This document shows positions 8,287-30,598 of a stretch of 64,000 nt of DNA, one piece after another (position 1 is the stretch's first letter; each line of letters opens with the position of its first letter). The DNA is taken from the IMG/VR virus record IMGVR_UViG_3300022661_000054, one strand, 5' to 3'. The notes under the pieces were generated by a model. The model was not told the origin of the DNA and ran no database searches. It saw nothing but the letters and a program-made list of their open reading frames with translations. The position numbers were made by a program, and so were the translations under genes. The stretch comes from a virus. Its lineage: Duplodnaviria > Heunggongvirae > Uroviricota > Caudoviricetes.

Positions 8287-8544
8287 TTAGTCAGGTAAAC
8301 CGGTTATTCGCCCACCGTCAACCTCTTCATCGTAACGATGTTCATATAAAACATCTTCCGTTGTAGATTTTATAAAAAAATCTAATTCTTGTAAAGTTCT
8401 AGCGCCATCACCGACTTTAATACGAGAATACTTGATTTTGTCGTCAGGATCATATATAATTAATTCCCCTGCTTCTGGTTTAAAAGAAGATAACTTTAGC
8501 CATTCTGCCTCGGTCTTATGTAGATTACTTATTCTAGCTTTCAT
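8287..8544 (-). CDS. Anchor-only mini-protein (85 aa): the shared fibre N-terminal motif with no fibre shaft
   Basis: Sequence is MKARISNLHKTEAEWLKLSSFKPEAGELIIYDPDD..IKVGDGARTLQELDFF. A TAATG overlap couples it to the upstream gene. Confidence 0.6.
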   Translation of the reverse strand: MKARISNLHKTEAEWLKLSSFKPEAGELIIYDPDDKIKYSRIKVGDGARTLQELDFFIKSTTEDVLYEHRYDEEVDGGRITGLPD

Positions 8545-9236: not shown

Positions 9237-12200
9237 TATGCTTCCTCCTCATACTCAAAATTAAGAATACAATTACTTGCACCAAATGTTGGGTCTTTTT
9301 CTCTGCCTTGATCGTCTACTCCAGAATAGTAATTGTAATGTTGCTCTTCTGTCCATGGGAAATTAAATATAACAGGGTTATCCTGGCTACCAGAATTTAT
9401 GAAGGCTCCTGGATGAATATAGAAAGGCTGCTTGTCACCACTTTCAGTATTTTTAAAAGTTACACTCTTCAAAGTTGACATATATCCAAAAGCTCTCTCC
9501 ATGATGTTGGTTACAGTAGATGGGATTATAACACTTTCTAATATACATTGATTAAATACATAAGTTCTTATGTCAGTTAAGCCTTCTGGTAAGACTACTT
9601 CAGATAGCTTATAACACCAAGAAAAGCAAATATCACGTAATTCTTTTAGTGTACTTGGCAACACAACATTTTGTAGTTGCTCACAATGACTAAATGCATT
9701 GTCAGCAATAGAACTTACACCATTAGGTATTTCAATAGCTGTAATTGGCATTTTAGCAAAGCAATATCTACCAAGACTGACTACAGAACCATCTTGTGGA
9801 ATCTCGTTAGTTAGACCTTGAAGTAACTTTTTACTTTGTTTATCAATTAAACAATTTTGTTTAACTACAAATTTAGTATTGCCTTCTGCAACATTAATTT
9901 TCGTTAGCTTCAAGCATTCTGCAAAAGCGCCGTCATTAATAGTAGAAACATTAACTGGAATAGTTATTTCTTTTATTGTATCACAGCCTTGGAAAGCCCT
10001 TGAATCAATTGTTTCTAGAGAATCAGGTAAATTAATCAACTCCAATTCATCATGATCGTTAAAACCACCTAATCGTATTACAGTATAAGGCATGCCAGCG
10101 ACCTCAATATTTTTTGGTACAGTAACAGCAGCATTTTGATAGTTATTATATTTAATAATAGCCATTGTACCATCTGGATTGAGCGTATGCCCGACTTGTA
10201 GCTTTTCATTATAATCATAATATTCACCAATATCATAAATGTCTACTACATGCCAGGAGCTTTCTGATACCTTAAATTGTGCATAGCAAGTCATCGGACC
10301 AACAATTTTTTCTGGTGCTGGATGCCAACCAGTAAACTCATATATATCAGAAGATGGTACAACCGGAGTGGGATAGCCAGCGCCAAAGTAGTCTGCATCT
10401 TCACCATAAGGAACATAAATTTCAGCTAATAATTGGTTTCCCTCTGGGGCAGTTTGGTTTATAAATGTTATAAGATAACTACGCCTAATTGCCTCAAAAG
10501 CAGGATAAAGTATTCGATTACCAGCAACTCCAAGTAAAGCATCCGCATGAACACCCTCACCTAATTTTCTAGTCCAACCAATCCACTCGTAATTAAACTC
10601 TTCAGTAGAATCTTTAGTAGGCTTAGCAATCATACCTTCAGGCACTTGGCCATCGTCACCTAAATAGACCGGATCTTCACAATCAACTATCTCAGAATTA
10701 TATGATATAATGGTTTCACGATGTAGTACTGTTTCACCATCAGCACCCATAAATATAACATCTGAAGTCATTTCACCATATATAATATCAAGATAAGGAT
10801 AATGAGCTTTAATTTCTGTATACTCCTCACCTGTGAGCTTTGTAATATAGCAAGTACCAACTAAATAAGCGTCATCTAAAGGATTGTTTTTTTCGTCAAT
10901 ACCTCTTATACCACTAACAAGATTACCTGCTTCATCAAATACTGGAAACAAAGATGTGATAAAACTAGCATCAGCTAAAGGCATTTCTGCCGTGCCCCAC
11001 TCGATACCGGTAAGACGGACACGCTCAACAGTGTACTTGCCAGTATTATCGCAGCAATTTGCAAGTATTTCATTTGTATTCAAATTAGGACAGTTTTCTA
11101 TACACAAAGTTCTTATGTTTTGGTAACCCTCTACATAAAATCCGTCTATGAAGTCATCAGAACCGTTCTCTCCACGCTGTGGATACAAATAATGTTGATT
11201 TTTAATAACTAGCGTATTAATCGATGCAGGAAGATGAAGCGTCTTAATATAGCCACTAGTAGGCAGGTCTACTGAGGTAAGGTTAGTACCTTCAGTGTAA
11301 ATATGCTCAATATTAGGACATCCAGATAGCTCCAAAGTCTTTTGCGGATTTTCACCCGCAATACCAAGGCCTGAGCAGTTTCTTAAATCAATATAGCGCA
11401 ACAACCTATTAGAGCCTACTGAAATTTCACGGAAGTTATCATTATAATATGCAGAGTCTGGATTACCAACAGTTAGCTCTGTTAATTTTGCAGCATTACT
11501 TAGGTTAATAACACCACAATATAAACCAGACAAATCACCAAGAGAAGAGATTTCGCTGGCACCATAGATAGCGGTCTCAGTGTCACCGAATGTTTCATTC
11601 TCATTTAGCGGTTTAAATGTGTAAGATTCACCTGCTTTTAACCTTTGTTGCTGAAGTGTACCAGACTTATAACGAACGCCAGCATACATATCTGAGAAGG
11701 GTGTTATAGTAATATTAGGATTAGCAGGTACAACAGCCAAAGAAGCGTTGATACGATCAATTTCTTCCTGTGTAGCATCGTCAGCAGCCTTAGGAGTATA
11801 AATTCGTAAGAAAATATCATCACTCGGGTAGTTTCCTGCATACCACTTGCTATCACAGTAATTTATACGGTTATCAATAAAGTATCTTAAATGGTGCTCA
11901 CCAGGGCCACGAACTTGATAAAGGTTAGAAGCATCTATACCAGTTACTTCATTACCGTCTTCATCCTTATGAGCAACATGCTCTCTTGCCATAGAAACGT
12001 ATTTATAATCTGCGTCAGCGTTATAGATGGCAGCACTCCATTTATCAGAACCATTAGTAACGAATTGTTCTATAATTTTATTATAGGTTAGCTTTCCACT
12101 ACTTCTTAGTTCAGAATAAGTATCCTCGATCTCTTTTGGAAAACAGAGTCTGAAGTTGTTCCAAAGTACGCTATTCTGACCATTAAATACATTAGAAGAA

Positions 12201-15200
12201 CCGAGTTGATCAGTATCTTCGTGAAAATAGTCAAAAACTAGAGCACCTTCATTGTTGATACCAAAAATTGTGTCGTTATCATAGAAGTATGGATACCATC
12301 TAAAAACACCATCGTCCTCTTTCCAACGAGTAAGGAATAGGTTCTTAGCCCTCTGGTCAGTCATTAGCGCAAAGAACGTGAATACATAATACATGCTACT
12401 ATAATGCATGTTGAAGTAATTTTTAAATTCGTACTTAAACTTAGCTAATCTATACTCTTCATTGTCCTCAGTATAAGTTGTTTCACCATAAACTATAGGT
12501 TCAGTCAATGGTGCAGGGGTAATTGCTACTTTTTTACCATCTATAAGAGAATATGTAGCTGTACTGAGTACCCAATCATGCATTTCTTTAAAGTTAGCAA
12601 TGCAGTTAGACATTAAAGTAGCGAGCTCATTTCTTTGCGCGGATGTCATTGTACCTTTTCCGCTTGCTGCGAGCTCTTCAACTTCTTTTAGTTCTTCAAT
12701 ACGCTCAAAGTTAGCAGATTCTGGTACATATCTCGGTTCAAAGTCTTCTAGCCAATCAGCTGTGATCTCACCGGCGAAGTTTACTGTGTCAGAAGTGTTA
12801 TTACAGAATTCCCAACATTCTACGCCGTAGTCTTTATACTCTTCAGTAAATCCAAAAGCATTTTCAGCATCTTTATCATAGTTAAAGTTACCCTTAGATG
12901 AAAACACTGGTTCAGAGTCTTCAGTCTCTTTTTCAAAGATAATAATTGGGAAACCTTGAATCGTTGTACGTACTCTAGTATCATCTTTCTGCGGCGGGAG
13001 AATTACTTCTTCTCTATCATAAAAAGTTTCAACGTAATTAGCAACTCCTGTATTGTGGGTACCAGTAGCTTCTGCGTAATCTACTTTAACACAAAATACT
13101 TTTGCTGGAATGGCCCCAGGCATATGAGCCCTTGCTTCAGGAAGCTTTACTTTCCAGTTTTTACGAATATAGAACTGTGAAGAAGTACCTTGTACGTCAA
13201 TCTGGTCCAAAAGTACGTCAAAATTCATTTCTGGGTGCGTTGGGTCCTCAAACTTCATACGTGTAGTCTTCTTCTTTTTATCACCTTTATACGTAGGCAT
13301 TGGGCCTGTAAAAGTAATAATAGGAATCTGCCCGAGAGCTTTTACTCTATCATATGAAACCTTACCGTTTTCGTCTAATATATCATTATCCGTCATAAGC
13401 TGTAGTCTTGTAGTAGGCACAGTCTGGTCTGCAATATAGTTATTTAAAGCGGCAGATGTTGAAAGTGCTTTATTATAAATACGAATATTATAAATATCAA
13501 GTCCACATAAATTTGAACCCAGTTTAATAGTTAATGGGTTATTCTGCTGAAAGCTATCAGTGTCTGCATATCTTTGTACTCCAGAAAGAATACCGTCAAG
13601 ATATATAGAAACAAAACGAGAAGTCGTATCTGAATGTTCTACTGCTATAGCGACTCTAACACGCTCCTCATCTTTATATCTGCAAGAAACCTCTGTACCA
13701 GAGCTCTTTAAGAAAGCAGTATCTGGGGTTGCTCTGAAACCTTTAGAACCATCGAAACAATCGATTACAACAGCATCGCGGTCATTAACATCACGAACAA
13801 CAAACTCAAATTCAATGGTTTTACCATTAGCCTTAAAGTCTTCAGCAAAAGGTTTAAAGTTAATAATTGCTTTAGCATCACCATTTAGTCTTAAGCAGGT
13901 ATCACCGGCATTATCAGTAATCCAACCGTTAGATGTCCAGTTAAAACCCTCAAAAGAAGTAGTAACCGTGTTATATGTTTTGTCACCATCAGGTGCTTGA
14001 GTATATTCCCAAATGGCTGGATTTTGCTCATTATTTGAGCGACCTTGTGCAGACAGGTAGAGCTGCATACTGTCCTCTTCAGGTGATACATCTACCTCAA
14101 GCTCTGCCACCCTCACAGTATGTGATTTAGTAATAGTCGTTTGTACACCATACAAATTATAAGTATAACTAATTTCAAATACTGCAATACCATTTGGATA
14201 TTTTCTCGTATTCCAGAATTGCTGGCTACGGTCTACAGTAATAGATGTTCTGTCTATTTCAATTAATTCGCCAGCTACCTGAGAGTACACAATAAGTTCG
14301 ATATCACTATTAATTTTAGCAGGGTCATAAACCATGTAAGGAATTGATACAAGGTCACCCTGAGTAGCTTCCTCAAAGTCATACACAGATGTGATAATAG
14401 CAGTATTGTTATCATTCTCAATACAAATAATCTCATACTCAAGAATATTAGAAGTAACAGTATTGTCGCCAACAACTGCGGATACATGAGCAGTAATTTT
14501 ATGGCATCCATGAGCTTGCTTCGGAATTAGCAAGGTTATTTCATTACCACTAACACTTGCGCCAAGTTTTTTAATAGAAACCTCTGCGCCATCTACTAAG
14601 ATATAGGCAGTCTTTTCTATCTGCCCAAATACTTTATATCTGAATGTAATAGCATCATTAAAAATTTGTGTACTATTAAAAGCAGATTCAAGACGGAGTT
14701 CAATCTGTGAAATGGTATATACTAAAGTTCTCAAAGAACCATACTGGTCAGTACAAGTTACCTTAACAGTATTTGAACCATTTTTTAAATGATCTGCAAC
14801 ATTCAAAGACTTAGCTATTCCATGTTGAATACTACCAGATAGAGTCTCAATTTTTTTATCATTTATAACAACAGAATAAACACCATCACCAGTAGGTACT
14901 TCATTTTCGAATGATGTATAAGTGAAATTAATCAATGCTTCATTACCCTTTGAAATAGTAAATGAAGTAGAAGGAAGATTATTTATTACTCTAACCGTGG
15001 AGATGCTTCCACCACCACCTGTGCCTCCAGTAATAGTTACTGGGTCACCAACCGGTATATCTTTAGAAGTTAACCATAGCTGATTGTCTTCGTAGAGCAA
15101 ACCATCAACAGCGTTAGAAGGAATATAGCTAGGTAGACTTGCTTTAAGAGCGTCGAGGTCATCACCAATAGCTCTAACTGCATCACCAGCAGAAGCGTGA

Positions 15201-16990
15201 TCTATACCATTATAACCGAGTCTGATGTCAATTACCTCTTCATCTCTAGTAAGCTCTCCCGGCTTAGGTGCTATAAGGTTATTTATACGTTTTGACTGTA
15301 ATTCCAGCTCTGTATTTGTTTCAGTTATTCTGGTCGTGTTAGCTTCAACAACTTCACCAAGTTCATATAATTCTTTTTCTAGCTCTTCTTTGTTCGTTTT
15401 AATACTACTAGTAACTGCGCTTATTTCAGCGCTTATAGAATTTTGAGTATCTTTTATTTGTTTATCTAAAGAATCAAGCGTTTCCTGTTTTTCTATAAAG
15501 GTTAGATTAGTTGTAGATCTAAGTGATTCAACATTTTCAGTTAGCTCTGATTTTGTTTCCTCAATTGTTTTAGCTACGGAGTTCTCAATATTAGTTATTG
15601 ATTGAACTATTTTAGTATCAACTTTATCTGATAAAGCATTTAAATTGGCGTCTACTTTTGCAATTTCATCTGTTAAGCGACTGTCAGTCTGATTAAGAGC
15701 CTCAGAAACATATGCAATTTCGGTAGCTAAAGTATTTTTAGTCTGGTTAATTTTAGCATTTAATACATTTTCTACTGCATATACCTTGTTTAAAATCATT
15801 ATATCATCATCTACGAGATCAGCAATCTCTGCATAGATTTTTGTGACATAATTAAGCAGTGTTGTTAATAAATTTTCATAAGAAGCCTTTTGAGCTTGAT
15901 CAGCTACTGTAATTTCATCAGCAATTCTAGTAAATCTATCATTAGTATCTTTTTCTAAATTATCTAATTCTGCCTGTATGCTGGCGGTAATTGCAGTAAG
16001 TATATTACTTACCTCATAAATTTTATTTAAAAGCAGCACATCATCATTACTCAGCTGTTCATTTAAAGAATTAATCTGAGTTAGAATATTATTAACACTA
16101 TCTGAACTTTGCTGTTTAAAGCTATTTAATTCTTGACCTAATGTGCCGTCTGCTATTATAAGGTCCTCTATTTGTTGTACAAGCTCAGACAATTTATTTT
16201 TATGCTGATCATCGACCATGGTGAGCTGAATTTCAAAATTAGCAATAGCATCCTGCAGGTCTTTAGACTGCTTTGTATCTGTATCATTAATAAGTTTACG
16301 TAATGCTTTGTCAGTTGATATACAGTCATTTATTTTATTAGATAGCTCAGCAGCTTTTGTAGCCAGTTCATTATATAAATTTTGAACTTCAACTGAATGT
16401 AAATTTTCAAGTTCTTCTGCTTTGCTCTGAATTTTAACATCAAGTTCTGTGATTGCAGGATGAATGTGTTCTTCTAAAGTAGCCACTAATCCGTTAACGT
16501 TTTGTTCTAGAGCTTTAAGTTGCTTAGTTGTGCCAGTAGCTTTGTTACTTATCTCTTTACCAAGCTTTTCATCTAGCGACGCAATGCTCATAGCTAGATC
16601 GGAACTTGTCGATTCTGCGAGTTTATCCAGTTTTTCTTCAAGTACTTCAACATTTGATGAAATTGAGTCGGATAAAGCTTCTTCAGCCTTTGTGAGCTTC
16701 TCATCTAAATTCTCTACCGTTACGAGCAAAGCACCTTGTGTGCTCTTTATCTTAGATACTTTAGTGTCAAAAGTTTTTTCAGTTAAATTTATTTTTTTAA
16801 GTAGCTCAGTTTTTGTTGTGTCATCTACATATGGTAAATCTAAAAATTTAGTCTTACCATTACCTATTTTGCATTTACGAGACCCATCAAAGCACTCTTC
16901 TATAACAAGTTCACAGTTTTCAGGTACTAAATTAATTTTTTGCCATTCCTCTGTAGTACCTCTACGATGTCTTATGATATTATATGCCAT
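9236..16990 (-). CDS. Giant multidomain fibre/appendage protein (2584 aa). Domain order: N-terminal anchor, long coiled coil, LamG/ConA-like lectin, CotH-like domain, LRR-like region, BspA-type LRR region
   Basis: Single uninterrupted ORF with TGGAG RBS. Residues 1-55 carry the anchor motif (RHRRGTTEEWQKINLVPENCELVI...KIGNGKTKFLDLPYV). Residues 60-590 show heptad, Leu/Glu-rich coiled coil. A Laminin_G_3-like segment ends in DIYNIRIYNKALS. A CotH-like core reads AKNLFLTRWKEDDGVFRWYPYFYDNDTIFG. LRR-like segments include LxxLxLxxC and LPDSLETIDSRAFQGC. Confidence 0.9.
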   Translation of the reverse strand: MAYNIIRHRRGTTEEWQKINLVPENCELVIEECFDGSRKCKIGNGKTKFLDLPYVDDTTKTELLKKINLTEKTFDTKVSKIKSTQGALLVTVENLDEKLTKAEEALSDSISSNVEVLEEKLDKLAESTSSDLAMSIASLDEKLGKEISNKATGTTKQLKALEQNVNGLVATLEEHIHPAITELDVKIQSKAEELENLHSVEVQNLYNELATKAAELSNKINDCISTDKALRKLINDTDTKQSKDLQDAIANFEIQLTMVDDQHKNKLSELVQQIEDLIIADGTLGQELNSFKQQSSDSVNNILTQINSLNEQLSNDDVLLLNKIYEVSNILTAITASIQAELDNLEKDTNDRFTRIADEITVADQAQKASYENLLTTLLNYVTKIYAEIADLVDDDIMILNKVYAVENVLNAKINQTKNTLATEIAYVSEALNQTDSRLTDEIAKVDANLNALSDKVDTKIVQSITNIENSVAKTIEETKSELTENVESLRSTTNLTFIEKQETLDSLDKQIKDTQNSISAEISAVTSSIKTNKEELEKELYELGEVVEANTTRITETNTELELQSKRINNLIAPKPGELTRDEEVIDIRLGYNGIDHASAGDAVRAIGDDLDALKASLPSYIPSNAVDGLLYEDNQLWLTSKDIPVGDPVTITGGTGGGGSISTVRVINNLPSTSFTISKGNEALINFTYTSFENEVPTGDGVYSVVINDKKIETLSGSIQHGIAKSLNVADHLKNGSNTVKVTCTDQYGSLRTLVYTISQIELRLESAFNSTQIFNDAITFRYKVFGQIEKTAYILVDGAEVSIKKLGASVSGNEITLLIPKQAHGCHKITAHVSAVVGDNTVTSNILEYEIICIENDNNTAIITSVYDFEEATQGDLVSIPYMVYDPAKINSDIELIVYSQVAGELIEIDRTSITVDRSQQFWNTRKYPNGIAVFEISYTYNLYGVQTTITKSHTVRVAELEVDVSPEEDSMQLYLSAQGRSNNEQNPAIWEYTQAPDGDKTYNTVTTSFEGFNWTSNGWITDNAGDTCLRLNGDAKAIINFKPFAEDFKANGKTIEFEFVVRDVNDRDAVVIDCFDGSKGFRATPDTAFLKSSGTEVSCRYKDEERVRVAIAVEHSDTTSRFVSIYLDGILSGVQRYADTDSFQQNNPLTIKLGSNLCGLDIYNIRIYNKALSTSAALNNYIADQTVPTTRLQLMTDNDILDENGKVSYDRVKALGQIPIITFTGPMPTYKGDKKKKTTRMKFEDPTHPEMNFDVLLDQIDVQGTSSQFYIRKNWKVKLPEARAHMPGAIPAKVFCVKVDYAEATGTHNTGVANYVETFYDREEVILPPQKDDTRVRTTIQGFPIIIFEKETEDSEPVFSSKGNFNYDKDAENAFGFTEEYKDYGVECWEFCNNTSDTVNFAGEITADWLEDFEPRYVPESANFERIEELKEVEELAASGKGTMTSAQRNELATLMSNCIANFKEMHDWVLSTATYSLIDGKKVAITPAPLTEPIVYGETTYTEDNEEYRLAKFKYEFKNYFNMHYSSMYYVFTFFALMTDQRAKNLFLTRWKEDDGVFRWYPYFYDNDTIFGINNEGALVFDYFHEDTDQLGSSNVFNGQNSVLWNNFRLCFPKEIEDTYSELRSSGKLTYNKIIEQFVTNGSDKWSAAIYNADADYKYVSMAREHVAHKDEDGNEVTGIDASNLYQVRGPGEHHLRYFIDNRINYCDSKWYAGNYPSDDIFLRIYTPKAADDATQEEIDRINASLAVVPANPNITITPFSDMYAGVRYKSGTLQQQRLKAGESYTFKPLNENETFGDTETAIYGASEISSLGDLSGLYCGVINLSNAAKLTELTVGNPDSAYYNDNFREISVGSNRLLRYIDLRNCSGLGIAGENPQKTLELSGCPNIEHIYTEGTNLTSVDLPTSGYIKTLHLPASINTLVIKNQHYLYPQRGENGSDDFIDGFYVEGYQNIRTLCIENCPNLNTNEILANCCDNTGKYTVERVRLTGIEWGTAEMPLADASFITSLFPVFDEAGNLVSGIRGIDEKNNPLDDAYLVGTCYITKLTGEEYTEIKAHYPYLDIIYGEMTSDVIFMGADGETVLHRETIISYNSEIVDCEDPVYLGDDGQVPEGMIAKPTKDSTEEFNYEWIGWTRKLGEGVHADALLGVAGNRILYPAFEAIRRSYLITFINQTAPEGNQLLAEIYVPYGEDADYFGAGYPTPVVPSSDIYEFTGWHPAPEKIVGPMTCYAQFKVSESSWHVVDIYDIGEYYDYNEKLQVGHTLNPDGTMAIIKYNNYQNAAVTVPKNIEVAGMPYTVIRLGGFNDHDELELINLPDSLETIDSRAFQGCDTIKEITIPVNVSTINDGAFAECLKLTKINVAEGNTKFVVKQNCLIDKQSKKLLQGLTNEIPQDGSVVSLGRYCFAKMPITAIEIPNGVSSIADNAFSHCEQLQNVVLPSTLKELRDICFSWCYKLSEVVLPEGLTDIRTYVFNQCILESVIIPSTVTNIMERAFGYMSTLKSVTFKNTESGDKQPFYIHPGAFINSGSQDNPVIFNFPWTEEQHYNYYSGVDDQGREKDPTFGASNCILNFEYEEEA
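9431..10063 (-). other. BspA-type leucine-rich-repeat region (about residues 2310-2520)
   Basis: Repeating units: LPDSLETIDSRAFQGCDTIKEITIP, INDGAFAECLKLTKINV, IADNAFSHCEQLQNVVLP, IMERAFGYMSTLKSVTF. Confidence 0.55.
11891..12493 (-). other. CotH-like domain in the giant protein (about residues 1500-1700)
   Basis: The motif AKNLFL...WYPYFYDNDTIFG is paralogous to the motif in the 3323..4639 product. Confidence 0.45.
13436..13903 (-). other. LamG / concanavalin-A-like lectin domain (about residues 1030-1185)
   Basis: The segment LRLNGDAKAI...IDCFDGSKGF...FVSIYLDGILSG...DIYNIRIYNKALS is the typical Laminin_G_3 C-terminal signature. Confidence 0.6.
15221..16813 (-). other. Coiled-coil stalk of the giant protein (about residues 60-590)
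   Basis: Heptad-like L/I/E/K/N-rich sequence with no Pro or Gly runs. Confidence 0.6.
16826..16990 (-). other. N-terminal anchor domain of the giant protein
   Basis: Residues 1-55 match the shared fibre N-terminal motif. Confidence 0.6.
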
Positions 16991-17054
16991 AAGCTTAACT
17001 CCAATCTACTTGTTTTATTGTTCGTATAATTTAGCAAATAGATTAAAAAAAATT

Positions 17055-17082
17055 AAGCAGGTGACCTTAAGGTCACCTGCTT
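17055..17082 (-). terminator. Intrinsic terminator after gene 17107..19398
   Basis: Perfect 28-nt palindrome aagcaggtgacc-ttaa-ggtcacctgctt followed by TTTTTTTT on the minus strand. Confidence 0.75.
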
Positions 17083-17106
17083 AAAACATATATTAGTATC
17101 TAATTA

Positions 17107-19499: not shown

Positions 19500-22313
19500 T
19501 CATTCAGTAGCTTTTGCGGTAGCAGAACCACCGTTAAGAATAAGCTCATCGCCCTCAGTCTGAACAAGCTTATTAACATTAACTTCTTTAATGCCAAGCT
19601 GAACACCAGTAGCACCTTCGCCTTCAATAGCAGCAACAGAAATCTCAGTAGATTCTTTAACTTCTTTAGCCGCAACAGAAGCAATAAGTGCTGCAATATC
19701 TTCCGCATTCTTCTCATGTGCAGCAGTATTAGCAGCAATAGCTAAAGCATTAGCCTCATGAGCAGCTTTATTATTAGCTACATCAGTTACTAGCTGAGCA
19801 ATATCGCTGGCATTATCGTTTACAAACTCAATAAGGTTTGTAACGTTGGTAATAGTATCTTCAGCATTTGCACCACCGATAAGAGCATTTACACGAGCGT
19901 CAACCTGTGCTTCTGTTAAGAAGGTATCATCAGCCTCATCCTTAGTATATACGTCAGCAGCATTTGCTTTAAGATCAAGAGCAGACTGATTGGCTGTCTT
20001 AAACTCTTCAAATGTTGCCTTCTCAAGATAAGGATCAAAGTCTACATCTGGAATTGCATCAATAGCACCCTGAACTGCAGAATCGACTTCGTCTTTGGTG
20101 TAATAGCCATCAAACTTATCAGTGTTTGCTTTAATAAGGTTGGCGAGCTCAGTGTCTCTAGTCTTAAGACCAGCAATATCTGATCCATGAACAGCAACAA
20201 CACCAGCAAGACCCTTGTTATTATCAGTGCCGTCACCGTTAATAATACCCTCTAGAGAATCGATTCTAGAAGATTCAACAACACCGACCTCAGTCTCTAA
20301 AGCAGATAATCTAGTGTTAAGAACAGTTAGTCCAGTCTCATCACTATTTAATCTTTGCTGAATCGCTGCAATAGTTGAATCATGAGTTCCGATATTGGTA
20401 GCATTTTCATTAACAGCGTCAATAAAGCTTTGACCATCTTTAAGGTCAGAAACTTTGACGTTTGAGATTACAGGAACCTCAATATTTACTGTTTTATCAT
20501 CATCAGAAGGAGTTAGCTTAGTGCCATTAACTGCGATGTACTCAATAGAGTTAGGTTCACCGCCAACCTCAGTGATTTCTTTAATTTTACCTTCTAAGTT
20601 ATCCGCCTTAGTAGCAGCATTAGAAGCAACCTGAGAAACACCTGCTAATTCGTCTTTAGTTGCGGCGTTTGCAATGGTAGCAAACTTATCATCAGCTGAA
20701 GTCTTATCATAATAGTTATCAGCAAGGTCTGTTTCAACATCACCAATGCGTGTTCCAACAGATTCAAACTGGCCTTCAACGTCAGACTTGACAGCAAAAG
20801 TTGCCTTGTCAGTAGTATAAGAGTCTACATCTACTTTCTTAGCAAGGTCAGCATTTACATCAGCTTTAAGAGCAAATGTAGCCTTGTCAGCAGTATAGTC
20901 AGCAACATGCTGTTCATAAGTAGTATTATCAACTTTCTTGCCAAGTTCTGTTTCTACGGCAGAAGCTTTTGCATATTGGCCAAGATTTTCAGCCTCAATA
21001 GCTTCTTCAATAGCACTTGTAACTTCGTCTGCAGTCTGTGCTGCTTCAGCAGTAGCCTTAACATCGTTTAAAGCAGAAACGGTAGCAACTACAGCTTCAT
21101 CAATTGCAATTTCACCGTCTGTGCTAACAGTAATACCGTTACCACCAGTGTAGGTATCGATAAGGTCATTAAGCTCAATCTCAGTAGCATTTTTACCTGC
21201 ATCAGTGTTCCAAGTAAGAGTAAGCTTCTTAGAATCCTTATCATACGCAGCACTATCAAGCATACCGTCTTTAACGAACTTAGCAGCATTTACAGAAGCA
21301 ACCTCTGTACCTGCACTATTCTTAATTACGATATAGTCAGATTCAACTTCGTTAACAGTCTTCTTCTCAATGGTTATGTCAAGCCCAGTGATCTGTTCGT
21401 CAGTGTAGCCCTTTGCAGAATTAAGAGTATCAGCATCAGCCTGCTCACGAGCTTTAGCTTCATCATCGATATCTTTTTCAAGAGCAGTTACACGATCAGC
21501 AAGTTCGGTATCGTCATAAGCATCTTCAGAAGTTAGATAATCATCCTCGATAGCTTTGATTCTAGCTTTAACATCTGTGTCATCATAAACAGTGTCAGCA
21601 TCAGCAGAATCTGCATAGTCTTTAGCTCTCTGCTCAGCTTCTGCAATAGCGGCATAAAGACCTGTTGCATTTTGGTCACCCTCAGCGGCTGCACCAATCT
21701 TACCATTAAACTCATCTTTAACGCCCTGAATAGCTGTCTCTACAGAAGTAGTAGTAGCATAGGCAGAAAGATCGAGAGAGATTTTATAGGTATTAGTATC
21801 TGTATCATCATCACGTACCTTCTCGATTAGTACATGAGTCTCTTCATCACCAGCAGCGATTACAGTTTTAGTGTTAGTATCGCCTTCTGTAATAGAATCG
21901 ATTGGAACCCACTTGATTGAACCATCAGCCTGCTTCTGTGGAAGAGTTGATTCTGCAGCAGCCTCAAAGCCAGCTAAGCTTAAAACACCATTCTCATCAA
22001 GAACGATGCTCTTACCATCGCCGTTAGTAGCTTTACCAACTTCTTGAAGAGTACCAGCGGCGTCGGCAATAATATAGAATGTTACGTTATCTACTACAGT
22101 AGCATCTTCTGCGTTAGTAGTAACAACAGCAAGTGTTTGACCTACATATGCAATAGCATTTTTGGTCGCATAATCCTGAGCAGCCTCAAGAGCAGTTTTA
22201 TCAGCAGTAGCATAGAATACGCTATAAGCTTCTAGAGGGAAACAACCCTGTCTTTTAAAGCTATTAGGATACTCAGTTAAATTTGTAGGAATTCTAGTTA
22301 AAAGTTCCGCCAT
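19500..22313 (-). CDS. Long fibrous coiled-coil structural protein (937 aa)
   Basis: Uninterrupted ORF with D/E/A/T-rich heptad composition. It is followed by a terminator, which suggests high expression. Confidence 0.85.
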   Translation of the reverse strand: MAELLTRIPTNLTEYPNSFKRQGCFPLEAYSVFYATADKTALEAAQDYATKNAIAYVGQTLAVVTTNAEDATVVDNVTFYIIADAAGTLQEVGKATNGDGKSIVLDENGVLSLAGFEAAAESTLPQKQADGSIKWVPIDSITEGDTNTKTVIAAGDEETHVLIEKVRDDDTDTNTYKISLDLSAYATTTSVETAIQGVKDEFNGKIGAAAEGDQNATGLYAAIAEAEQRAKDYADSADADTVYDDTDVKARIKAIEDDYLTSEDAYDDTELADRVTALEKDIDDEAKAREQADADTLNSAKGYTDEQITGLDITIEKKTVNEVESDYIVIKNSAGTEVASVNAAKFVKDGMLDSAAYDKDSKKLTLTWNTDAGKNATEIELNDLIDTYTGGNGITVSTDGEIAIDEAVVATVSALNDVKATAEAAQTADEVTSAIEEAIEAENLGQYAKASAVETELGKKVDNTTYEQHVADYTADKATFALKADVNADLAKKVDVDSYTTDKATFAVKSDVEGQFESVGTRIGDVETDLADNYYDKTSADDKFATIANAATKDELAGVSQVASNAATKADNLEGKIKEITEVGGEPNSIEYIAVNGTKLTPSDDDKTVNIEVPVISNVKVSDLKDGQSFIDAVNENATNIGTHDSTIAAIQQRLNSDETGLTVLNTRLSALETEVGVVESSRIDSLEGIINGDGTDNNKGLAGVVAVHGSDIAGLKTRDTELANLIKANTDKFDGYYTKDEVDSAVQGAIDAIPDVDFDPYLEKATFEEFKTANQSALDLKANAADVYTKDEADDTFLTEAQVDARVNALIGGANAEDTITNVTNLIEFVNDNASDIAQLVTDVANNKAAHEANALAIAANTAAHEKNAEDIAALIASVAAKEVKESTEISVAAIEGEGATGVQLGIKEVNVNKLVQTEGDELILNGGSATAKATE

Positions 22314-22327
22314 TATTTATTTCCTCC

Positions 22328-23521
22328 TTAACCTAAAGTAACAGTGAGCGAAGTCTCTGTGCCATAAGCTTCTGCAGGAGTAAATGTCCAAACATTATAA
22401 TTCTCTGCATAGTCACCAATACTTGTAGCAGTAGCATCAGCACCGCCAACAGAAATACCTTCAGTCTTAGTGAATGAAGTAGTCATGTCTGCATTAACAG
22501 TATTATTATAAACCTTAGTTACACCAGTAGAGCCTGCAGGACAAGCAAGTATAATAGTAGAAGCACCAACAGGAACAGTCATGTTCTTTGTACCAGCTGC
22601 ATACTTAGCACCAGTCTTAGCAAGACCTCTAATAGTAGCACTATCTAGATCAGCTGTAGCAGTCACATCAGAAGTAGTACCGAAGAAAAAGCCCTCACGG
22701 AAACCTGTAATGCTGAAAGTAATCTCTTTAGAAGAAGAACTACCTTTAATCCTCTTACTATCAACTATAGCACCAACATTATTAACAGGAGTTCTTGGAG
22801 AATCGCCCCAAGTACATACGTTTGTAATCTTTGCGACTTCTGCAGAAGAAGTAGAACTGATAGAAATCTGCGGATTAAGAGTAACAGTACCATCTACGCC
22901 GTCGGTAAATGTACCTTCTTTAGTACAAGAAACGTCATAAGAAGCTGTTACACCTGTAGCAGTGTCAGTATATTTTGTGTCACCAATCTTAGAACCAAAT
23001 TCATAAGAACCAGCGCTAAATGTGCCATCCCAAGAAATTGTCTTAATCTTACTACCGATTTCAGCAGTACCTGTGTTAGTTACAATACCATAACCAAGAA
23101 CAGTACCATTAGACTTACCGTTATGAGTCTTCACCATCATGCTAAATGAAGGTTGACCAACAGCAGGATCTTTTGTCTCTGAAAGAGCATCAAGTAGCCA
23201 TTCAGAAGTTGTCATACCCTTACCACCAGCGTTTACGAAACCGTTGGAAGTAGTATGACGTCCGAAGTTGTAAGTGAGGATCTGGTCTTCCTCAAAAACA
23301 CCTTCTGCTTGAGGAAGGTCTTTCCAAGCAGTGTCTGAACCGTCACCGACTTTGATGATTGGAACCTGAACATTTTTGGTTTCACCATCAATAGTCTTAG
23401 CAACAGTCATGTAGCCAACACCAACTTCACCAGCTTGTAGGCGATAGCTGTTATCAGCTTCCCATGCTTCTTTAGAGCCATTTCTCAAGACAATAATAGT
23501 ATTCAATGTCTTTTGTGCCAT
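22328..23521 (-). CDS. Structural protein (397 aa) with the N-terminal anchor motif and an S/T/G-rich beta region
   Basis: N-terminus ...GSKEAWEADNSYRLQAGEVGVGY...IIKVGDGSDTAWKDLP. RBS is AGAGAGGTAAACAAA. Confidence 0.8.
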   Translation of the reverse strand: MAQKTLNTIIVLRNGSKEAWEADNSYRLQAGEVGVGYMTVAKTIDGETKNVQVPIIKVGDGSDTAWKDLPQAEGVFEEDQILTYNFGRHTTSNGFVNAGGKGMTTSEWLLDALSETKDPAVGQPSFSMMVKTHNGKSNGTVLGYGIVTNTGTAEIGSKIKTISWDGTFSAGSYEFGSKIGDTKYTDTATGVTASYDVSCTKEGTFTDGVDGTVTLNPQISISSTSSAEVAKITNVCTWGDSPRTPVNNVGAIVDSKRIKGSSSSKEITFSITGFREGFFFGTTSDVTATADLDSATIRGLAKTGAKYAAGTKNMTVPVGASTIILACPAGSTGVTKVYNNTVNADMTTSFTKTEGISVGGADATATSIGDYAENYNVWTFTPAEAYGTETSLTVTLG

Positions 23522-23585: not shown

Positions 23586-24140
23586 TTAAGCTGACGGTCC
23601 GCCGCCGTCAATAATTTCAATATCAGATGCATCATCTGTACCACCGTCGCCGACAGGAAGATATTCATTATTGTACCAAACATAAGTAGTAGCCTCTTCT
23701 GTTACAACATAAAGTCTTCCGGAAATACCATTATCTGGCAACTGCTCTTTTGTATCTACCACAACGGTAGAGGTATCTTGTAGCTCATCTACTTCAGACT
23801 GAAGCGTTTCAAGATTTGTCTTAATTGTTGCTACTTGCTCGGCTAAGCCTGGTAGGTCGTTAAGACCTCCAAGCTTATGCCAGTTAGCTTCATTTGTTAC
23901 ATCAGGTACTTTTAAAATATTCGTTACAGTACTATCATGTAAAAAATATATACCGTTTCTAGCTGAGTCACTATCTAGCCAAACAGCTACAATCATACCA
24001 TTATATGCAGATACTTTACCTGCATCATTATACCAGGTTTCAGAGAGTAGCAAATCATTATAGGTTTTAACTAATGATTTAGCATCTACTGGACCTTTAC
24101 CTGAATATTTATACTGTAGTTCAATTTGCGAGCCTGCCAC
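23586..24140 (-). CDS. Hypothetical structural protein (184 aa)
   Basis: ORF in the operon with a short predicted coiled coil (TNLETLQSEVDELQD). Confidence 0.7.
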   Translation of the reverse strand: MAGSQIELQYKYSGKGPVDAKSLVKTYNDLLLSETWYNDAGKVSAYNGMIVAVWLDSDSARNGIYFLHDSTVTNILKVPDVTNEANWHKLGGLNDLPGLAEQVATIKTNLETLQSEVDELQDTSTVVVDTKEQLPDNGISGRLYVVTEEATTYVWYNNEYLPVGDGGTDDASDIEIIDGGGPSA

Positions 24141-24142
24141 TA

Positions 24143-27100
24143 TTAAATAACCTCCTTAATGATGTATCTATACTTCTCTCCATTATTTACACTATCAAGA
24201 TTTACCCAGAGTGTGTAGTCATTAGGAACTGTTGGGACGTCTAATCCGCAGCTCTCAAGTGTTTCACTAATTAGATCTTTATCACAAGTTAATTGACTTG
24301 CAAAATCTGGGGAAGTGTTTTTCCATTCTTTAGAACCGTTGTCCCAAATTTTTACAGAAACTTGTAATTTATCTGAGTTTAAATCAAGACTGTTTGGAAG
24401 TGCAATCATATAAAACAATTCATTTTCATAACTTGTAAATTGTTGATAGCCAGACTCATTAACAGTATCACCATCAATAACTTGATAGAATCCAGCAGTA
24501 TCAGGAGCTTTTGTTGACTCTTCTACAGTCATCGTTTTATAGTTAAAAGCAACTTCCTCAAGTTGGCCACCAGCAGCTATTTGATACATAGGTAATTCAT
24601 TAGCTATTAAATTATCTATAATACCTTCTGGCTCGTCAGGATTTTCAGGTTCTTGTCCTGGCTGTTCATCAGTAAGCCCTAATAATTTAGCCAATATTTC
24701 TGCTATTTTAAGGTCTTTTATATTATCGCCGACTTTAAAATCTCCAATAGGGTTACTAATAAATTTAGCAGTTGTAAAAGGAGTATCATTAGCTTTAACA
24801 TCAACAGCTGTTGCAATTGCATTAGCTATTTCTGAAGTAGTTGAATAATCTTCAAGTGATTGATGTTCAGTTAAGTAGCCTTTAGCTGTAAGCTCTTCTT
24901 CTGTAATATATTCACTAGGTATTTCTGAGATAAACTTAGAAACGTCAGGAATATCAGACTTTAGAGCGAAATTGCTCACGTCAGGAATTTCTTTCTTAGT
25001 TGCTAAATGACTAATATCTTGATGCTGTGTTAAATAACCCTTAGATTCGAGTTCGCCCTCAGTTATGTATTCAGCAGGAACTTCGCTAATAAAACCTTCA
25101 ATCTCATCCTTAGTAACATAATTATCTAAGTTCACTACTGGATGTTCAATGGCCTCGATTGCGTTATTTAGTTCTTCTTTTGTTGCAAAACCATCAACAA
25201 CTGGCAGCTCTGTCTTCTTAACATACTCGCTAAGATCTTGATGCTCAGTAAGATATCCAGCATCATTAGTAAATGCACTTACGTTGGTAGGAACCTCTGG
25301 AATTTCAAGTGCAAAAATCTGTTCATTAACATATTGCTCAGAAGCAAGCCCATCGGTATTTGGAAGGCTATAAACCTCTTTACCAATTCTGATACTAGTT
25401 AATTCACCGTTAACTTCGCCGTCAGCGTTTGCTTCAACTTTATTTAATTTAACTTCTTTGGAAATTTCCCAGGTATTATCACTGTGTAAATAATAAGTAT
25501 TAAATGAACCATAAGCTTCACTTCTGCTTGTTAAGAATTTTGTAAATGTAATCATGTCACTTCTGACATAATTCATCACTGCGTAACCATTTACATCAGG
25601 AGCAGCATTAGCTAAAACCAGGAATTTGCCATTGTTATATGCATTAATTGCAGCAGTAAAGTCCGGTGCAGCAAAATCAACAACAAATAGTTCTGTCTCA
25701 GGAATTTCAATACCTGCAATAGCGTTATTTACAAACTCTTCAGTTGCGAGACCTTCTATAGAAGGAATTTCAAGCTCTTTGAACTTATTATCAACTTCAG
25801 TCTTGTTATAATAATTCGCAAGAAGATTATCAAGCTCTTCCTCAGTTACTTCGCCACCATTGAGCTCAGCTTTAGCAATTTCACTTCTAACAAAATCTTC
25901 CGAGGCGAGTCCTTCAATACTAGGAATTTCAGACTTCTTGGCATATTCACTAAGATTTTGATGCTCAGTTAAATAACCTTTAGCTTCAACATCTTCCATA
26001 GTAATAAAGCTAGAAGTATCAGGAATATCAATTCCATTTATTACTTCATTAACTAAGGCTTCTGTTTCAGATTTATTATAGTAATTAGATAAATTAACTT
26101 CAGGAATATCTTTAGCAGTGATGTAGCCTGCATCATTTTCTAATTCACTTACTTTTGTTGGATATTCAATATTACTAATTGCATTATCTACATATTCTTC
26201 AGTAGCATATTTTGCATCATTCTCAAGTTCACTTACTTTAGTAGGTACTGCAGGGATAAGTACATCAACTTCAGACTTAGTGTAATAAGCGCTAAGGTCG
26301 ACGTCCTGGTCAGCTAGTTCAGCTTCAGCAATTTTCTGAGTAACAAACTCCTTAGTAGCGACGTCAAGTTCTTGCTTACCAACGTTGAGCTTGTTATCCT
26401 CAGTAATTTCAACTTTATTAAGTTTAACTTCTTTTGAAACTTCCCAGGTATTAGCCGGACTTAGATAATAAGTATTAAATGCGCCGTAGGTTTCACTTCT
26501 ACTCATTAAGAATTTTGTAAATGTAATATATTTTTCACTTACATAATTCATTACGGCATAGCTATTAACGTCTGGAGCCGCATTAACTAAAACTAATACT
26601 TTTCCATTATTGTAAGCTTCAACTGCCTCGGCATAATCAGGAGCGTTGAAATCAACTTTATAAAGTTCAGCCTCAGGAAGCTCTATATTATTGATAGCCG
26701 TGTTAACGAATTCTTCTGTAGCCAAACCTTCGGTACTAGGAATCTCAGGCTTATTATTTAAATCGTTATAGTCTCTACTAAACAGCTCATCCTTTTTAGC
26801 ATAAGCTTCTAAACTTTGATGTTCAGTAAGATAGCCTTTTTTGTCAAGTGTGTCTTCTGTAATATACTCATTATGAGCATGATCTATTGTCGCATATTCT
26901 TCATGGCCATGTACTTTATTTGCATAATCTTCATGTAAATGATCAGTTGTTGCATAGTTAGCATGACTATGCTCAACAACTGCATATTCAGTATGCTCAT
27001 GATCTACGTCAGCCTTACCTGTAGCGATAGTAGTCAAAGCTTCAATAGCGTCCTTATTATTATCTATTAAGCTTCCAAGCTCTTTAAGAGTATCATAAGC

Positions 27101-28201
27101 TTCACCTGCGCCATTAAGAAGTTCATCTTTAATAGCCTGAGCAGTTCCTTTAATATCATATAAGTCATCGTGCTTATGGTCAATGTCTGCAACAGTACTT
27201 ATTCTCTCATCAATACGACGAGCAACAGCATCTGGCACAAGATCGTTGTGACAAGTATCATTGGTAAGAATTACACGAACTTTGTCCTTACTAATAAGTT
27301 TATCATCAGCATACCAGTGGAAGTTGTAGTAGAATCCAAGGTATTTATCAATAGTAGATCTGTCGCCAAACTTTGACCAGCTGTCACCACTCTTGTTGGC
27401 AATAGCCGACCATATCGTGGTATATTTTCTGCCTAAACTGTCAGTAGCAAGAGCACTATGCTCCGCATCCATCTTATCATTTGAGCCTTCAATAACGCTT
27501 GTAGCATTCTCTGGAGCATATGCTCGGAATGTCATATAGTAGTAAGAATCTGAACTACCATCACCGGCATTCTGAGGAGGCAGAGCATTGATGTCTACAT
27601 GCTCAGTATTCACTCTAACTTCGCTATTGTTATAACTAACAAACATTCCGTCAACAGGAAGTACTTCATACTTATTTTGTAAGTATTTTTGACTTGCTAC
27701 CCATTCTTGAGTTGCAGCTTTTTCAGTAAGTTCTTGGACTGTTGGAATAATTTCTGTTTCAACTTTTTGAACTGTTGGTAAAATCTGTTGCTCAACTGTA
27801 GGAATAACTTCTTTTTCGAGTTTTGTTTGTACCTGCTCAACTTTAGGAGTAAGCCCAGCAACAGCAGCTTCAACATGCTGCTCAGTAGCGTAATTAGCAT
27901 CATTTTCTAATTCACTTACTTTTGTAGGATTAGCTGGATGCTCGATATTATTAATTATAGTATCAATTTCTTCTTTACTATAGTAATCAGCTAAGTCTAT
28001 CCCATCACTGTTACTATAATTAATCTGCTTTAGCGTCAATAATTCTTGGCCACTATCGTCTTTATCAAAAACGCTTAAAAAGAGCTCTGCAGTGTCTGTA
28101 CAAAGATACCAACAATCTTCTTCTAAAACTATGTTAGGGTTAAGCTCCCCATCAATAAAAAGGTCAGTAGATAGACCTCGTCTAATATTAAGCTCAGACA
28201 T
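24143..28201 (-). CDS. Large repeat-rich fibre protein (1352 aa) with two duplicated ~95-aa modules, several short motif repeats and a His-rich decapeptide array
   Basis: The module ...NNGK.LVL.NAAPDVN.YAVMNYV......TFTKFL.SRSE.YG.FNTYYL...NTWE.SKEVKLNKVE appears twice. PTKVSELENDA.YATE appears three times. KGYLTEHQ.L.EY appears five times. The array is DHEHTEYAV / EHSHANYAT / DHLHEDYAN / VHGHEEYAT / DHAHNEYIT. Confidence 0.85.
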   Translation of the reverse strand: MSELNIRRGLSTDLFIDGELNPNIVLEEDCWYLCTDTAELFLSVFDKDDSGQELLTLKQINYSNSDGIDLADYYSKEEIDTIINNIEHPANPTKVSELENDANYATEQHVEAAVAGLTPKVEQVQTKLEKEVIPTVEQQILPTVQKVETEIIPTVQELTEKAATQEWVASQKYLQNKYEVLPVDGMFVSYNNSEVRVNTEHVDINALPPQNAGDGSSDSYYYMTFRAYAPENATSVIEGSNDKMDAEHSALATDSLGRKYTTIWSAIANKSGDSWSKFGDRSTIDKYLGFYYNFHWYADDKLISKDKVRVILTNDTCHNDLVPDAVARRIDERISTVADIDHKHDDLYDIKGTAQAIKDELLNGAGEAYDTLKELGSLIDNNKDAIEALTTIATGKADVDHEHTEYAVVEHSHANYATTDHLHEDYANKVHGHEEYATIDHAHNEYITEDTLDKKGYLTEHQSLEAYAKKDELFSRDYNDLNNKPEIPSTEGLATEEFVNTAINNIELPEAELYKVDFNAPDYAEAVEAYNNGKVLVLVNAAPDVNSYAVMNYVSEKYITFTKFLMSRSETYGAFNTYYLSPANTWEVSKEVKLNKVEITEDNKLNVGKQELDVATKEFVTQKIAEAELADQDVDLSAYYTKSEVDVLIPAVPTKVSELENDAKYATEEYVDNAISNIEYPTKVSELENDAGYITAKDIPEVNLSNYYNKSETEALVNEVINGIDIPDTSSFITMEDVEAKGYLTEHQNLSEYAKKSEIPSIEGLASEDFVRSEIAKAELNGGEVTEEELDNLLANYYNKTEVDNKFKELEIPSIEGLATEEFVNNAIAGIEIPETELFVVDFAAPDFTAAINAYNNGKFLVLANAAPDVNGYAVMNYVRSDMITFTKFLTSRSEAYGSFNTYYLHSDNTWEISKEVKLNKVEANADGEVNGELTSIRIGKEVYSLPNTDGLASEQYVNEQIFALEIPEVPTNVSAFTNDAGYLTEHQDLSEYVKKTELPVVDGFATKEELNNAIEAIEHPVVNLDNYVTKDEIEGFISEVPAEYITEGELESKGYLTQHQDISHLATKKEIPDVSNFALKSDIPDVSKFISEIPSEYITEEELTAKGYLTEHQSLEDYSTTSEIANAIATAVDVKANDTPFTTAKFISNPIGDFKVGDNIKDLKIAEILAKLLGLTDEQPGQEPENPDEPEGIIDNLIANELPMYQIAAGGQLEEVAFNYKTMTVEESTKAPDTAGFYQVIDGDTVNESGYQQFTSYENELFYMIALPNSLDLNSDKLQVSVKIWDNGSKEWKNTSPDFASQLTCDKDLISETLESCGLDVPTVPNDYTLWVNLDSVNNGEKYRYIIKEVI
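25502..25789 (-). repeat. Intragenic direct repeat, copy 2 of the ~290-bp module
   Basis: DNA-level similarity to 26402..26689, for example ttcccaggtatta...taagaattttgtaaatgtaat. Confidence 0.7.
26402..26689 (-). repeat. Intragenic direct repeat, copy 1 of the ~290-bp module
   Basis: See the copy-2 entry. The two copies encode paralogous ~95-aa segments. Confidence 0.7.
26861..27007 (-). repeat. Five tandem 30-bp repeats encoding the HxH decapeptide array
   Basis: Five consecutive decapeptides each contain H-x-H-x-(E/D/N)-Y-A. Confidence 0.7.
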
Positions 28202-29737: not shown

Positions 29738-30598
29738 TTACAGATATAGCTTATACTTATTTTGATTTTTAGCTGCGATGACGGTATTCTGCATAAGCAT
29801 TGCAATTGTCATAGGTCCGACACCACCAGGTACCGGAGTAATCCATGATGTTTTGCGTGAAACATTTTCAAAATCGACATCACCACAGAGCTTGCCGTCT
29901 ACACGGTTAATTCCGACATCAATAACGACAGCGCCGTCTTTAACCATATCTGCTGTAATAAACCCAGGACTGCCGACGGCAACCACAAGAATGTCAGCCC
30001 GACGACAAACTTCTGTCAAGTCATTAGTTTTAGAATGCGCTGTTGTGACAGTGCCGTCTTTGTGAAGCAATAGCATGCTCATTGGCTTTCCGACAATATT
30101 AGATCTACCTACAACAACACACTCTTTGCCAGCTACTTCAATATTATAGTAGTCAAGCATTTCCATAACACCTGCGGGGGTACAAGGAAGAAAATCATAT
30201 TCGCCGATCATAATTTTACCAACATTTTTTGGGTGAAAGGCATCTACATCTTTGTATGGACTAACTGCGTTCAAAACAGCTTTCTCGTCATAACCAGGTG
30301 GGAGGGGGAGCTGCACAAGAATACCATCAATTGCTTCGTCAATGTTTAAGTCGTAGATAAGTCTAATAAGCTTTTCCTGGCCAATATCCGCAGGTAAATT
30401 AAACTGTCTTGAAATAATACCCGTCTCCTCACAAGCCTTTTGCTTATTTCTTACATATACCTGCGAAGCTTGGTCTTCACCAACTAAGATAACAGCCAAA
30501 CAAGGATAAACTCTTTTTTCTTTTAGTTGTTTAACTTCTTCGGCTACACGCTCCTTAACCGCTTTTGATACAACCTTACCATCAATAATATTACTCAT
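29738..30598 (-). CDS. folD: Bifunctional 5,10-methylene-tetrahydrofolate dehydrogenase / methenyl-THF cyclohydrolase
   Basis: Full-length FolD (286 aa). Sequence reads NIIDGK...LAVILVGEDQASQVYVRNK...VVVGRSNIVGKPM. The YxxxK-type substrate motif and the GRSxIVGxP NAD(P)-binding motif are both present. Confidence 0.9.
   Translation of the reverse strand: MSNIIDGKVVSKAVKERVAEEVKQLKEKRVYPCLAVILVGEDQASQVYVRNKQKACEETGIISRQFNLPADIGQEKLIRLIYDLNIDEAIDGILVQLPLPPGYDEKAVLNAVSPYKDVDAFHPKNVGKIMIGEYDFLPCTPAGVMEMLDYYNIEVAGKECVVVGRSNIVGKPMSMLLLHKDGTVTTAHSKTNDLTEVCRRADILVVAVGSPGFITADMVKDGAVVIDVGINRVDGKLCGDVDFENVSRKTSWITPVPGGVGPMTIAMLMQNTVIAAKNQNKYKLYL

Follow-up and report, generated by a model that had tools for sequence, protein, structure and literature searches.

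What does a phage fibre do with five consecutive decapeptides that each carry a pair of histidines, and how did the repeats around them arise? These questions are raised by a gene in the 64,000-nucleotide stretch of the virus record IMGVR_UViG_3300022661_000054 (Caudoviricetes) that was analysed here and is called the window below. The gene (24143..28201, on the minus strand, as are all of its parts described here) codes for a protein of 1352 amino acids (aa), ~151 kDa, with an isoelectric point of 4.3. The product is probably a long virion fibre, probably homotrimeric and most likely part of the tail. The best joint explanation of the findings is a homotrimeric mosaic fibre that would hold metal on its axis at the His-x-His (HxH) motifs and that carries old paralogous knobs, and we consider this explanation reasonably probable.

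The repeats cannot be ascribed to assembly. The identical 1352-aa protein was found on 19 independently assembled contigs (ENA, JGI and Logan), 17 of them longer than 200 kb, which excludes an assembly error as the source of the array described in an earlier note on this DNA that had been made from the sequence alone. On the opposite strand within the gene there is no open reading frame (ORF) of at least 80 aa.

The histidine array

The array occupies aa 397-447 (26861..27013) and consists of the decapeptides ADVDHEHTEY, AVVEHSHANY, ATTDHLHEDY, ANKVHGHEEY and ATIDHAHNEY, the last of them followed by I. The five-unit array proposed in the earlier note is thus present, with five histidine pairs in phase (H401/403, 411/413, 421/423, 431/433 and 441/443; aa 401-447, window positions 26861..27001), each continued by x-[E/N/D]-Y-[A/I]. 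When this His-rich 51-aa stretch was shuffled, three or more in-phase HxH appeared in only 214 of 200,000 permutations. The array is not a tandem repeat at the level of DNA, where Tandem Repeats Finder finds nothing, and its five units average 62% nucleotide and 49% aa identity. One more pair at aa 342/344 brings the HxH motifs of the fibre to six.

This sixth pair (H342/H344) and the first pair of the array (H401/H403) flank a helical module of ~60 aa (aa 338-403; 26993..27190), for which an AlphaFold2 (AF2) monomer model gives helices at a predicted local distance difference test (pLDDT) of 80-86. The region of aa 335-640 was aligned in two parts, a joint alignment having put helical rows onto a globular module, and in the resulting alignment of the helical module (A3) the residues H8, H10, Y14, H67 and H69 are invariant, and these include the two HxH pairs at the module ends. 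The helical module has a marginal profile match to the Fiber Upper protein gp68 of the trimeric fibre of Staphylococcus phage 80alpha (6v8i; E=0.008, 19.5 bits), which has a helical tail-fibre module of the APExLxTLxELAxAL type, and weak matches to PHROG tail-fibre families (E from 0.005 to 0.18).

The motif is strongly over-represented in the relatives of the fibre. A total of 447 metagenomic proteins match it; the best of them share 34-41% identity with it across 72-94% of the length. In the 120 best the HxH motif was observed 481 times against 47 expected from composition, an enrichment of about ten-fold, and the consensus around it is G-K-A-D-K-E-H-T-H-[D/E]-E-Y-[L/A]-T-E, with acidic residues beside the pair at -1 and +3/+4 and with Tyr (+5) and Ala (+6) conserved. 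In the family, where one unit lies between two in-phase HxH pairs, this middle unit had both histidines in 586 cases, neither in 62 and a single one in just 1. Such all-or-none pairing was observed directly and is what a site requiring both imidazoles predicts.

We also searched with the array alone against 1.84 billion cluster representatives (E <=0.001), which returned 270 protein clusters, 54 of them at E <=1e-10; the array-bearing proteins belong to phages or prophages of several phyla, gut Bacillota among them. Spacing and array length were tallied on the 146 listed matches that had not already been collected. Among these matches the HxH spacing was 10 in 970 of 1265 cases, 11 in 201, 9 in 45 and 14 in 43, and the arrays reached up to 26 units. 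Two of ten array-bearing proteins scanned end in a Peptidase_S74 intramolecular chaperone domain, which is typical of trimeric fibres and spikes. The proteins P0132, P0146, P0135 and P0129 and the loci L005, L017 and L020 consist mostly of the HxHxxYA decapeptide in 14-26 consecutive units (in P0129, for example, ADHTHEGYAAADHTHEEYAAADHTHEDY...), and these long arrays matched no Pfam model above threshold and had no relative in the PDB.

A search of genomes and metagenome-assembled genomes for a DNA pattern of four strict in-phase units gave 18 loci, which include Ruminococcus, Lachnospiraceae, Acutalibacteraceae, other Clostridia, Synergistaceae, Kiritimatiellae, Binatia, Streptomyces and Ilumatobacter. 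One Clostridia ORF among them shares the motif kit of the fibre, the end of one ORF resembles, by eye, an S74 chaperone domain, and at locus L010 the canonical fibre motif APETLNTLNELAAALGDDPNFA is followed directly by GKADVNHTH. A tblastn search with the long array of P0124 brought up nothing but spurious "pentapeptide" proteins at 20% identity, an outcome that low-complexity masking probably explains.

In relatives, the GKAD..H.H.. unit is matched by the Pfam model PTR (PF12789, "Phage tail repeat like"), an entry in which the repeat is given neither a function nor a structure. The relative P0014 passes the gathering threshold at aa 474-491, whereas P0133 and P0121 score below it; neither the whole fibre nor its aa 335-480 matched PTR even at E up to 10. 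The streptococcal histidine triad (PF04270, HxxHxH) was considered as well and rejected, since the fibre has no match to it in Pfam. The Strep_his_triad matches in the relatives P0050 and P0007 sit on the linker KGYLTEHQ.ISHLA and not on HxH arrays, and they are probably spurious, summed from weak repeat matches.

The gene points to a large unannotated family that would use a strictly periodic HxH decapeptide as a modular element of the shaft. More tentatively, and as something we would not call probable, [D/E]-H-x-H-x-x-Y-A-x-x could be the unit of an undescribed single-pass three-stranded fold with one buried metal per ten residues, repeated from 2 to at least 26 times, and so provide a length-adjustable metal-stapled shaft segment to phages of many bacterial phyla.

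Comparison with known HxH sites

Iron sites of HxH type are known from a small number of fibres and spikes with solved structures, where they are single or arranged in a doubled-back needle of the T4 type. In these trimers the motif forms an octahedral His6 site on the three-fold axis, usually with Fe(II) (PMC6116203; PMC8174754; PMC12609058). Iron sites have been described in T4 gp37, which has seven, in the R1/R2 pyocin fibres, in P2 gpV and in phi92 (PMC6116203; PMC8174754; PMC12609058), while refolded T4 gp12 contained Zn instead of Fe (PMC6116203; PMC8174754). The HxH site itself is already known, and the periodic single-pass array is a variant of it.

The tip needle of T4 gp37 (PDB 2XGF) and the needles of the fibres of Bas63 and Burkholderia phage E094 likewise have several HxH along the fibre. 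We checked the gp37 sequence and found seven HxH in the tip, the last three of them 9 residues apart; its tandem motifs are spaced by 9 and 14 residues, similar to the fibre studied here, and in needles of this type the number of motifs scales with the length of the rod (PMC12609058). No sequence similarity between the gp37 tip and our fibre was detectable in the PDB sequence searches. The shaft of the R1/R2 pyocin fibres (PDB 6CL5/6CL6 class) and the spike apices of P2 gpV and phi92 are single-pass trimeric beta structures with a buried octahedral His6-Fe site, for which a role in chain registration and stiffness has been proposed (PMC6116203). However, the pyocin shaft, P2 gpV and phi92 have one site each and no periodic array, and they are unrelated in sequence to the fibre. 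Multiple HxH in the shaft are likewise found in gp12 of Alteromonas phage R22Y, where four are evenly spaced (His135, 157, 179 and 201). Its axial Fe sites are predicted only, from a multimer model, its period is 22 against 10 here, and it is a marine podovirus fibre of a different sequence family.

By analogy with these structures, we propose that both histidines of each HxH would face the three-fold axis of the trimer, where six imidazoles, two from each of the three chains, would hold one metal octahedrally, most probably Fe(II). The six motifs would then give six axial ions per fibre, and the five decapeptides would make a metal-stapled three-stranded rod that could register the chains during folding and stiffen the shaft locally. 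Six axial sites seem the most likely arrangement because HxH points to the three-fold axis in all solved trimeric fibres and spikes, and a fibre with six such sites, five of them consecutive in a metal-stapled rod segment, has in our judgement somewhat better than even prospects. Metal binding, which the earlier note had suggested with Zn or Ni in mind, is the best-supported role for the array in view of the solved HxH sites and the paired histidines; by the same analogy Fe, and not Zn or Ni, is the most likely metal.

Several points weigh against this reading. In the AF2 monomer model the array has no secondary structure (pLDDT <50), so that neither its fold nor an inward orientation of the histidines is given by the model; the model carries little weight here, since an element that is trimeric cannot take up its fold as a single chain. 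Searches with the whole protein, the array region and a long array found no sequence similarity to the solved HxH fibres. In gp37 the needle forms the C-terminal receptor-binding tip, its chain doubles back and its six strands interleave ascending and descending HxH, whereas our array lies mid-shaft, is single-pass, is followed by ~900 residues and has no second set of HxH downstream. The gp37 geometry is not simply transferable for this reason, and the sequence context also differs, being GxHxH in T4 and [D/E]HxHx[E/D/N]YA at an exact period of 10 in the fibre. As far as we found, the strict decapeptide array and the mosaic family are undescribed and without a solved structure, and attachment to the tail rather than to the head or neck is something that we infer.

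The histidine pairs could alternatively be exposed on the surface, either as a pH sensor or as an external patch for metal or ligand of the Ni/Zn type, comparable to a natural His-tag. Very acidic and rich in histidine, the stretch mostly has a small polar residue (T/S) within each pair, and the lack of a fold in the monomer model is compatible with exposure. Yet the strict all-or-none pairing and a phasing of exactly 10 residues in arrays of up to 26 units speak for a structural repeat, the invariant HxH pairs are located at module junctions, and burial of the pair on the axis of the trimer is seen in all solved HxH-bearing fibres and spikes of phages (PMC6116203), which makes exposure unlikely. 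A structural ladder that is free of metal, with the histidines stacked or hydrogen-bonded in a triple-stranded beta core, appears quite unlikely too. The conserved Tyr and Ala of the unit do show packing constraints beyond the histidines, and metal binding in this family rests on analogy, but six inward imidazoles at one level are a ready-made octahedral site, and the solved sites are all occupied, by Fe or, after refolding, by Zn.

The earlier note had also considered the decapeptide as a rung of a beta-solenoid, and this we regard as highly improbable for a single chain. The period is indeed regular and short, but ten residues are too few for a full single-chain turn, the coils of beta-helices needing roughly at least 18. 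Moreover, the AF2 monomer shows no strands in the array, although the method cannot model a trimer, and the relatives bear hallmarks of trimeric fibres.

If the model of axial metal sites is true, the array would be a new fibrous repeat with a predictable length per unit, some phage particles would have a much higher metal content, with a bearing on the ideas about phage-bound iron, and a simple programmable metal-stapled protein rod would be available.

A mosaic fibre and its family

Judged by its sequence matches, the fibre is a member of a large metagenomic family, as yet unnamed, of mosaic phage fibres. The plan of the family was observed directly and consists of a conserved N-terminal part of ~60 aa and a conserved C-terminal part of ~220 aa with a variable shaft between them, which in the relatives contains 0-3 domains of 170 aa of the type here called G1, 0-2 "NAAPD" modules, 0-4 helical modules and 0-23 HxH. 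Some relatives carry the Pfam domains Phage_tail_C, Phage_fiber_rpt or PTR, or collagen repeats. The whole fibre, in contrast, gave no informative match to Pfam or PHROG, nor to the PDB by sequence or profile, all of its PHROG matches being families of unknown function; the same negative result (Pfam, PHROG, and PDB by sequence and profile) was obtained for the NAAPD module, and no PDB sequence matched the array region with the helical module. Among cultured phages there was no DNA match to the gene and no close relative of the protein, with one weak match to a minor structural protein of Streptococcus phage Javan331 that falls on a linker.

That the protein is built from repeats, as the earlier note had it, was borne out by a comparison of the fibre with itself in an ungapped diagonal scan (BLOSUM62), with 20 shuffles as a baseline, whose maxima were 35-53. 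The segments at aa 486-606 and 811-931 scored 450, with 87 of 121 residues identical, the period-10 diagonal at aa 394-450 scored 117, and about 40 more off-diagonal segments lay above the range of the shuffles. BLASTP of the fibre against itself returned only the identity match.

At the N-terminus there is a conserved domain of aa 1-62 (28016..28201), presumably the end attached to the virion, which phmmer located N-terminally in about 45 of the 120 best relatives and which has no Pfam or PHROG match. It is followed by the first copy of the linker motif PTKVSELENDANYAT (aa 92-106; 27884..27928) and by three tandem copies of a repeat (E)xE(I/V)(I/L)PTV(Q/E) (aa 119-165; 27707..27847) that the earlier note did not contain and that is also seen in the relative P0002. 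Next comes the globular domain G1 (aa 166-337; 27191..27706), without a match in Pfam or PHROG, or in the PDB, where it was covered as part of the whole-protein query, and then the helical module and the array. At the other end, the conserved C-terminal domain (aa 1130-1352; 24146..24814) is a candidate distal tip or assembly domain; it stands at the C-terminus of more than 85 of the 120 relatives with 37-45% identity and had no match in the PDB, Pfam or PHROG.

Short linkers recur along the shaft. The motif PTKVSELENDA.Y[AI]T occurs three times, at aa 92, 653 and 681 (the two latter copies being aa 653-667 and 681-695; 26117..26245), and a degenerate version, PTNVSAFTNDAGYLT, is found at aa 969. 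The three copies that the earlier note counted are thus real, but only two of them end in YATE. Similarly, its five copies of KGYLTEHQ are five of GYLT[EQ]HQ (aa 456, 742, 982, 1055 and 1108), of which four are preceded by K. The first KGYLTEHQ copy is at 26816..26839, the others are at 25958..25981, 25019..25042 and 24860..24883, and the copy without K (GYLTEHQ) is at 25238..25258. The longest exact DNA repeat in the gene measures 29 nucleotides, at gene nucleotides 277 and 2044, and one of its copies lies in the DNA of PTKVSELENDANYAT.

In our proposal, an N-terminal anchor and the C-terminal domain would flank a mosaic shaft in which short linker peptides and helical modules are combined with HxH units and globular knobs of two kinds, and the diversity of the family would stem from gain, loss and exchange of whole modules between the repeated linkers.

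History of the duplicated module

The two similar segments revealed by the diagonal scan are a unit of linker plus globular NAAPD module, whose first copy (aa 486-606; 26384..26746) belongs to a clade A and whose second copy (aa 811-931; 25409..25771) belongs to a clade B. The core of the module in copy 1 was modelled at a pLDDT of 80-97 (AF2 model m4b6abd1ffb5c). The earlier note had seen the similarity of the two modules in DNA, which is real, with 70% nucleotide identity overall and 83% in the best stretch of 120 nucleotides. Its second range (25502..25789), however, is shifted by 75 bp from the true register, which has an offset of 975 bp, and the quoted ranges, once aligned, overlap only partly. 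In protein the copies are 72% identical over 121 aa.

The question is whether the copies come from a recent duplication inside the gene, with the length of the gene now changing fast by recombination between its own repeats. The remaining likeness in DNA would favour this, as would the whole-unit insertions and deletions (indels) that we found among close relatives of another subfamily (see below). On the other hand, the modules fall into separate clades and are 74% identical to each other, whereas five other proteins have modules with 89-91% identity to copy 1, and the module of P0012 shares 89% with copy 2. The third codon positions of the two copies are only 51% identical, the longest exact repeat is short, the protein is the same on all 19 contigs and the collection holds no other sequence of at least 90% identity. 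A recent duplication, which the earlier note had implied, is therefore distinctly improbable. The pattern of divergence indicates instead that the copies are old paralogues maintained or reassorted by module exchange. P0002 is the only other protein with one clade A and one clade B copy, and there the order is reversed.

In fibres whose remaining sequence is 25-40% identical, the NAAPD module keeps 59-76% identity with the query copy. This unusually high conservation would fit a functional knob, used in binding or docking, better than a spacer. In our proposal, both modules of the fibre would be old paralogous knobs kept under strong purifying selection.

Changes in length were observed directly among relatives. 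Eight of them, at 87-93% identity, have lengths between 1273 and 1728 aa, with clean in-frame indels of 19-430 aa, and one of these indels is the loss of a whole five-unit HxH array. In addition, the fibre at the locus discussed here measures 978 or 1661 aa in two related contigs. These whole-unit indels and the different lengths at one locus support an evolution of the family by gain and loss of modules, of which it offers a clean example at a single conserved locus. Tetart et al. are said to have described (J Mol Biol, 1996 and 1998) conserved "His boxes" in gp37/gp38 of the T-even phages as sites of recombination. Such junctions, at which adhesin segments are duplicated and exchanged, would resemble the indels at repeated motifs in the relatives of the fibre. 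The length change driven by repeats that the earlier note foresaw is consistent with these data, but in this lineage nothing points to change still under way, and the word "rapid" is unsupported, because the 19 contigs are identical, the cluster at 90% identity has a single member and the longest exact repeat has 29 nucleotides.

Genomic context

The contigs that bear the fibre gene measure ~220 kb and come from an uncultured phage. The window is AT-rich (~35% GC), and all of its ORFs of at least 150 aa are on the minus strand with the exception of an overlapping one at 16464..17084. The fibre is part of a block in which small genes are followed by the fibre, by proteins of ~180, 390, 900 and 700 aa and by a giant protein with LRR_5 repeats. 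We found the same block in two further contigs of phages, a 267-kb contig and a 32-kb fragment, with all neighbours homologous, so that the locus is a conserved block of large structural genes, syntenic across three contigs of 220-267-kb phages.

Following the fibre there are three fibre-like or virion-structural genes on the minus strand, all of them syntenic in the related phages. They code for proteins of 184 aa (23586..24140), with matches to the PHROG category "virion structural protein", 397 aa (22328..23521), with a weak Mtd_N match, and 937 aa (19500..22313). These proteins and the 1352-aa fibre may be parts of one multi-fibre or branched apparatus. In practical terms, the fibre gene contributes to a better annotation of the host-recognition apparatus of a jumbo gut-type phage. 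The block is closed by the giant protein of 2584 aa (9236..16990, minus strand), also present in the related contigs, which has relatives at 25-35% identity in human-gut and Bacteroides phages. Other phage hallmarks of the window are a peptidase/endolysin (66..1046) and a match to a PHROG tail fibre (8544..9236), and RNA ligases and a DNA methyltransferase are encoded as well.

A second fibre-like ORF of 498 aa is located at 48962..50458 (minus strand). Its N-terminus resembles the Mtd_N type by eye, and it contains the linker motif of the fibre twice, as VPTKVSQLENDSNF and LPTKISQLENDSNF. It adjoins a gene (47685..48833) similar to T4 RnlA, "RNA ligase and tail fiber attachment catalyst". A protein of 218 aa (44199..44855, minus strand) bears a HLHEHKH cluster close to the N-terminus and, C-terminally, a CxxC...CxxC motif resembling a zinc ribbon; it is unrelated to the fibre and matches PHROG families of unknown function. 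Finally, just upstream of the structural block, the gene at 29738..30598 (minus strand) codes for a FolD-type bifunctional methylene-tetrahydrofolate dehydrogenase/cyclohydrolase (Pfam THF_DHG_CYH and its C-terminal domain) and is a likely auxiliary metabolic gene.

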